In this document: positions 16,890-16,911 of the stretch, piece after piece
Layout of the letters: the number at the start of each line of letters is the position of its first letter
How positions within the stretch are numbered: position 1 is the first letter of the stretch
Assembly: GCF_003334405.1 (NCBI RefSeq)
Contig: NZ_QOWM01000004.1
DNA from: Escherichia coli
GTDB lineage: Bacteria; Pseudomonadota; Gammaproteobacteria; Enterobacterales; Enterobacteriaceae
Direction: 5' to 3' (one strand)
Length of the DNA stretch: 64,000 bases
The notes under the pieces: generated by a model
What the model saw: only the letters and a program-made list of their open reading frames with translations
Databases searched by the model: none
What the model was told of the DNA's origin: nothing
Program-made: the position numbers and the translations under genes

Positions 16890-16911
16890 CTTAATCAAAT
16901 GATTGATTAAG
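16890..16911 (-). promoter_or_regulatory. Perfect inverted repeat CTTAATCAA-N4-TTGATTAAG immediately 5' of cecR start, candidate CecR operator
   Basis: Palindrome read directly; TetR regulators typically bind such operators; assignment is inference. Confidence 0.4.

Follow-up and report, generated by a model that had tools for sequence, protein, structure and literature searches.

The TetR/tetO system, the founding repressor-operator pair of the TetR family, offers a first point of comparison for the locus described here, in that a homodimer with a TetR_N helix-turn-helix (HTH) binds a dyad overlapping the divergent promoters of regulator and exporter, and the drug releases the repressor. However, tetO, a dyad of 15 bp, occurs twice between tetR and tetA, whereas CecR has one dyad of 20-24 bp; moreover, cecR is transcribed together with its exporter genes, not divergently from them, and its divergent neighbor, rhlE, reportedly undergoes activation instead of repression. 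QacR with its operator IR1 and AcrR with its site at acrRAB are also alike, as both systems have long (24-28 bp) A+T-rich palindromes over the promoter or start of drug-efflux genes and regulators with multidrug-binding C-terminal pockets, although IR1 is occupied by two QacR dimers, the half-sites of QacR and AcrR are unrelated to that of CecR, and the C-terminal domain of CecR is a Pfam family of its own, PF09209. The closest E. coli paralogs of CecR by HTH are RutR and BetI, and the RutR box (TTGACCAnnTGGTCAA) and the BetI operator are likewise dyad sites in divergent control regions, but they differ from the CecR site in half-site sequence, spacing, effectors and regulons. In architecture and function, the CecR site is an ordinary operator of the TetR family, and in style it most resembles QacR IR1 and the AcrR site.

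The CecR site itself has been described in E. coli K-12 (Yamanaka, Shimada, Yamamoto and Ishihama, 2016, Microbiology 162:1253), with the same gene pair, spacer and regulator as in our locus, and the element we analyzed is very probably that published site itself, not just one similar to it. Pietrzyk-Brzezinska et al. (2025; PMC12998191), who solved the CecR structure, state with reference to Yamanaka et al. (2016) that the DNA sequence to which CecR binds was located in the region separating cecR-ybhGFSR from rhlE, and that the former is under negative and the latter under positive CecR control; where their paper deals with ligands, it gives measured affinities for antibiotics and describes a tunnel-like ligand cavity. 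Shimada et al. (2018; PMC5934670), where they treat YbiH/CecR, class it as a single-target regulator with the SELEX target “cecR” and the regulon cecR-ybhGFSR. Similarly, the account of CecR in Gao et al. (2018; PMC6237786) reports in vivo binding by ChIP-exo that agrees with SELEX, and a motif that is palindromic and AT-rich, described as inverted repeats “separated by 7 nt”, which is not obviously the same description as arms of 8-10 bp that lie 4 nt apart. It is from this literature that we take direct CecR binding, the cecR/rhlE spacer as the single genomic SELEX target, cecR repression and rhlE activation; a report of ligand-driven release of CecR from operator DNA was not found in the literature searched. 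[quoted passage not shown]

The site is of interest because it governs cecR-ybhGFSR, an ABC exporter operon that responds to drugs and influences how sensitive the cell is to cefoperazone and chloramphenicol. Publication of the operator dates from 2016, and thus what the preliminary description of this DNA had put forward as a candidate was already experimentally mapped; with the site mapped in that year and a CecR crystal structure available since 2025, finding it again adds no new biology. Our additions to the K-12 site are minor: arms of 10 bp, conservation and a consensus across genera, the ancestral 20-bp palindromic form without a gap and the change at its center in Escherichia, persistence of the site beside homologs down to ~43% identity, and a testable model in which the operator overlaps a predicted -10 element and transcription start. 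The cross-genus consensus, TTAATCAAnnnnTTGATTAA, can be used for annotation of CecR sites in Enterobacteriaceae.

The features of the locus, which lies in the 64-kb window (the whole stretch of DNA that was analyzed, part of the E. coli chromosome), are collected in the table below. The segment 16200-17110 was found in 5424 of 5426 complete E. coli genomes, at 95-100% identity and with the annotations cecR, rhlE and hlyD (=ybhG); the names of the downstream operon genes were obtained by mapping the annotation of one locus (L001) onto the window. The products of ybhG, ybhF, ybhS and ybhR are a membrane-fusion protein and an ABC exporter, and the gene order cecR-ybhG-ybhF is also found in distant loci. 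The divergent cecR/rhlE setting given in the preliminary description is borne out by RefSeq and the open reading frames (ORFs).

Coordinates of the cecR/rhlE control region and neighboring genes in the window
Feature	Coordinates	Strand	Sequence or basis
CecR operator (very probable)	16889..16912	.	dyad TCTTAATCAA-atga-TTGATTAAGA; perfect 10-bp arms, conservation, literature
Conserved 20-bp operator core	16891-16910		TTAATCAA N4 TTGATTAA
Non-symmetric dyad center	16899..16902	.	plus strand ATGA; cecR sense TCAT
Predicted -10 TAATCT of the cecR-ybhGFSR promoter	16910..16915	-	T-A-n-n-n-T in 79/79 distinct sequences
Predicted -35 TGGACA	16933..16938	-	cTGGACAa nearly invariant; fixed ungapped spacing to the palindrome, all genera
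cecR (ybiH), TetR-family regulator, 223 aa	16205..16876	-	RefSeq, NCBIfam NF008587, PDB matches, conserved ATG
ybhG (annotated hlyD; 15207-16202), ybhF, ybhS, ybhR	11235..16202	-	RefSeq annotation, ORF list
rhlE, DEAD-box RNA helicase, divergent	17105..18469	+	ORF list, RefSeq

That the regulator is CecR is clear from several matches of its product. For instance, its score against the NCBIfam CecR equivalog is 418 bits (cut-off 365), and it matches PDB 9i1x, which is E. coli CecR, at E 3e-148; it also matches PDB 1t33, whose chain was deposited under the name of putative TetR/AcrR-family repressor. Among the top 120 matches listed in the close-homolog search, all with identity of at least 76%, every protein carries both Pfam TetR_N (PF00440) and CecR_C (PF09209), whereas distant orthologs were drawn from a search of 50%-identity representatives. 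For the N-terminal domain, the proteins that match best apart from CecR itself are RutR and BetI. Within CecR, the DNA-binding domain (residues 13-60) has 54% invariant columns as against 35% in the ligand domain and rest of the protein, and the HTH ATTR.IA..(A/S)GQNIAAI.Y.F is invariant across the six proteins compared, down to 40% identity.

Where does cecR begin relative to the palindrome? The longest cecR ORF opens at an in-frame ATG at 16888 (16886-16888, minus strand; MDCAMNN...), which abuts the palindrome; in the alignment of 80 orthologous loci this codon is confined to Escherichia and the ATG at 16876 (16874-16876, minus strand; MNN...) is conserved in all 80, and therefore the RefSeq start is supported. 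The palindrome had been placed directly 5′ of the cecR start codon. It is indeed upstream of cecR, but it is separated from the conserved ATG by 12 nt if arms of 10 bp are counted, or 13 nt with arms of 9 bp, and abuts only the 16888 codon.

Direct reading of 16890-16911 gives CTTAATCAA ATGA TTGATTAAG, just as the preliminary description had it for a 22-bp palindrome with perfect 9-bp arms, and a repeat finder extends each arm by one pair, to TCTTAATCAA (16889-16898) and TTGATTAAGA (16903-16912). The arms are thus 10 nt each and 100% complementary, around a 4-nt non-symmetric center, atga. Reportedly, gel shift and DNase I footprinting, as given in the abstract of the 2016 study, yielded one site with the complete palindrome “AATTAGTT-AACTAATT”, which is the complement of TTAATCAA...TTGATTAA written 3′ to 5′ and agrees with the window at 16/16 positions (16891-16898 and 16903-16910). 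We regard this reported agreement as strong though provisional corroboration, and the link from footprint to coordinates draws on that abstract and on the comparative data. Among the papers searched for the site sequence, in all four orientations and as longer strings, no relevant one was found to quote it.

Might a palindrome such as this be a functionless chance feature of an A+T-rich intergenic region? At 44% G+C the cecR/rhlE spacer is comparatively rich in A+T, and in DNA of that kind short palindromes occur often. However, when the 228-bp spacer (16877-17104) was shuffled with dinucleotides preserved and the gap between arms limited to at most 8 nt, perfect arms of at least 10 nt were reached in only six of 5000 shuffles, which gives a chance estimate of about 0.001, and arms of at least 9 nt in 20/5000. 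In addition, a second copy of TTAATCAA-N4-TTGATTAA within two mismatches was not found anywhere in the 64-kb window, where the next best match has three mismatches, and the spacer contains neither a further CecR site within three mismatches nor extra half-sites.

Further evidence that bears on this question comes from a scan of one-genome-per-species contigs, which yielded 80 loci whose CecR is 73-100% identical; the genera include Escherichia, Citrobacter, Salmonella, Kluyvera, Enterobacter, Klebsiella, Raoultella and Kosakonia. All 80 carry a sequence close to the palindrome, 10-14 nt before the cecR ATG except in one locus, where the distance is 35 nt and the protein match starts late. The 20-bp core, TTAATCAATCGATTGATTAA, is nearly invariant over the 80 Enterobacteriaceae loci and holds its distance from cecR, but the two bases flanking it on each side vary (TC..GA, AG..CT, TA..TA, TC..TT and others), and therefore constraint applies to the 20-bp core, and inside the core to the outer eight bases of either half. 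In a fixed-register information profile the core stands at or near 2 bits per position, whereas the leader, the spacer between the -35 and -10 hexamers and the upstream DNA are near random; apart from the palindrome, no block between cecR and the conserved promoter-like hexamers is frozen across the phylogeny. The same picture emerges within E. coli, in which 3499 of 5424 genomes share an identical stretch of 69 bp around the site, and the SNPs of three sampled variant alleles lie between the -35 and the -10, ahead of the -35 or within the leader, with none in the palindrome, the -10 or the -35. That the core is nearly invariant across ~80 species while neighboring bases vary, and that the site is retained beside homologs down to 43% identity (see below), leads us to consider the chance reading refuted, for practical purposes, by these comparisons; the probability we would give it is negligible. 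Conservation of this kind, which is invariance without covariation, signals constraint and is silent on which factor imposes it.

What, then, is the factor? We consider the palindrome to be very probably the operator of CecR (YbiH), which would repress cecR-ybhGFSR through promoter overlap. The autoregulatory operator proposed earlier for this operon is supported by the identity of CecR, the frozen core, the co-travel of the site with cecR and the literature. The TetR-family architecture that had been noted holds up as well: as expected of such a module, a regulator with a PF00440 HTH is encoded next door, a dyad within the range of ~15-30 bp (here 24 bp) lies in the control region of that regulator, upstream of its ATG, and the operator is co-conserved with the regulator, being present in the 80 loci and beside homologs of 59, 49 and 43% identity and absent in one 46% lineage.

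The distant cases were obtained by an exhaustive search of 50%-identity representatives followed by genomic-context look-ups. Next to a CecR homolog that is 59% identical (L085), the perfect core is found within a perfect 28-bp palindrome, 16 nt before the ATG, and a 49% homolog with a divergent DEAD-box helicase (L087/L088) has TTAATCAtatGATTGATTAA, with three changes, 17 nt before the ATG. Upstream of a 43% homolog (L091) is AAAATCAAACGATTGATCAA, with four mismatches, a match equaled in 1/20000 shuffles; this locus keeps cecR-ybhG-ybhF although its upstream neighbor is a DabA-family gene, not rhlE. Since the site is kept there in the absence of rhlE, and beside homologs down to 43% identity, the element follows cecR, not rhlE. 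For one lineage with a 46% homolog (L089/L090; an A+T-rich genome with full rhlE/cecR/ybhGF synteny) no recognizable site was found, although the HTH is identical. Such travel of the site with cecR homologs argues for the operator assignment as independent computational support. As a separate observation, a divergent DEAD-box helicase (rhlE-like) together with cecR-ybhG-ybhF is kept at 46-49% CecR identity (L087-L090), and therefore the pairing of helicase and exporter operon is old.

An alternative is that IHF binds the element, instead of CecR or in addition to it, that it bends the cecR/rhlE spacer and that the conservation reflects IHF. The IHF core consensus, WATCAANNNNTTR, is matched perfectly on both strands (16893-16905 plus, 16896-16908 minus), and the TCGA-center variant of the site found in other genera still fits it, but the consensus is weak, occurring seven times in the window where chance predicts 2.6, and any TTAATCAA-N4-TTGATTAA dyad automatically contains it. 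An IHF site would be expected to be asymmetric with conservation limited to the consensus, and that is not what we see, because the outer TTAA, which IHF leaves unspecified, is equally invariant and the symmetry is strict, which is not typical of IHF sites. Additionally, the site holds a fixed distance to cecR and tracks cecR homologs, and where the literature deals with this spacer it assigns it to CecR (PMC5934670; PMC12998191). We therefore hold an IHF origin of the conservation to be very unlikely; that the CecR operator doubles as an IHF site and thereby mediates the reported rhlE activation is likewise improbable.

The relationship of the CecR operator to the promoter of its operon can be modeled from the alignment of the loci, in which the hexamers TGGACA and TAnnnT are exactly 17 nt apart, without gaps. 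This arrangement puts the predicted -10 at the edge of the operator, its final T being the first base of the operator core, and a sigma-70 start, predicted about 7 nt past the -10, would fall near 16903, at the dyad center, so that the operator would span roughly -8 to +13 of the predicted cecR start, a layout that is classical for TetR-type proteins acting by steric repression. A generic sigma-70 and terminator scan of 16700-17250 called no promoter and gave one weak terminator-like match inside cecR. The scan did not register the predicted cecR promoter because its -10, TAATCT, fits only three of the six consensus positions; with no cecR promoter called, the promoter model is therefore one built on conservation.

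The proximity of the palindrome to cecR also raises the question of whether it is an RNA hairpin in the cecR 5′ leader, acting on mRNA stability or translation initiation. A 10-bp stem closed by a 4-nt loop can form on the transcribed strand (-10 kcal/mol, z = -2.65 against shuffles), and this potential hairpin would be only 12 nt from the cecR start codon. However, the conserved -35 and -10 put the predicted start inside the palindrome, and therefore only the downstream arm would be transcribed. The stem is also A+T-rich (two G-C pairs of ten), has no T run and was not called by the terminator scan, and its sequence is invariant without compensatory changes, which is typical of a protein site. 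An Rfam search of the palindrome region gave no match at E up to 1. Thus a G+C-rich stem with a U run, a known RNA family and compensatory changes, any of which would mark a terminator or structured leader, were all absent from this region, and we regard a leader hairpin as extremely unlikely.

Returning to the CecR operator, we can outline how it might function. A CecR homodimer, or possibly a pair of dimers, would recognize the half-sites TTAATCAA and TTGATTAA. Since the operator lies over the predicted -10 and start of the cecR-ybhGFSR promoter, bound CecR would keep RNA polymerase off the promoter, repressing its own gene along with the YbhG/YbhFSR exporter, presumably by steric means. By analogy with other TetR-type systems, chloramphenicol or cephalosporins bound by the C-terminal domain should detach CecR from the operator and so lift repression of the operon. 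The same CecR site is reported to stimulate the divergent rhlE promoter.

The center of the dyad varies between genera. In the cecR sense it is TCAT in all Escherichia loci (L002-L006) and in one further locus (L037), TCGT, an intermediate, in four Kluyvera loci, and TCGA in all remaining loci. Outside Escherichia the operator is usually TTAATCAATCGATTGATTAA, that is, TTAATCAATC|GATTGATTAA, a perfect gapless 20-bp palindrome. We take this perfect gapless palindrome to be the ancestral CecR site, the central symmetry of which Escherichia has lost through a GA-to-AT double change. Did this change have consequences? It might alter CecR affinity or DNA bendability and thereby have retuned basal expression of the YbhGFSR exporter in Escherichia and, via the shared site, of rhlE, an idea we consider improbable.

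On the rhlE side, the spacer contains a second strongly conserved block, 16972-17012, with the plus strand reading GGGATAATTTATGCG....TCACAAAAACTGCTACACTC, and in it an extended -10-like sequence, TGcTACACT (17002-17010), that points toward rhlE. This block may be the rhlE promoter. If so, the CecR site would be ~115 bp upstream of the start, an unusual distance for the reported activation. Closer to rhlE, at 17067-17104, is a 10-nt inverted repeat, AACTACACCG/CGGAGTAGTT (90%), the right arm of which covers the rhlE Shine-Dalgarno before the ATG at 17105; a regulatory structure in the rhlE leader is unsupported, as folding there is no better than that of shuffled sequence (z = 0.04).

With respect to the window as a whole, palindromes with arms as long as those at cecR occur at seven loci against 0.5 expected, because G+C-rich terminator-like hairpins are present. 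The other long palindromes examined are G+C-rich hairpins beside T runs, or other palindromes, and the one at cecR is the A+T-rich one among the seven, placed in a promoter region. The longest perfect palindrome in the window, TCTGCATGGTTATGCATAACCATGCAGA (28 bp, 35406-35433), is of mixed composition, without a T run, and lies 10 nt past the 3′ end of a minus-strand ORF (35443-36342). Perfect G+C-rich hairpins are located at 22454-22479, 37215-37242 and 41013-41039, as well as at 31798-31821 and 43798-43824; three of the G+C-rich hairpins are bordered by A and T runs, e.g., AAAAATCCGCC...GGCGGATTTTT, and the G+C-rich hairpins look like intrinsic, partly bidirectional terminators.
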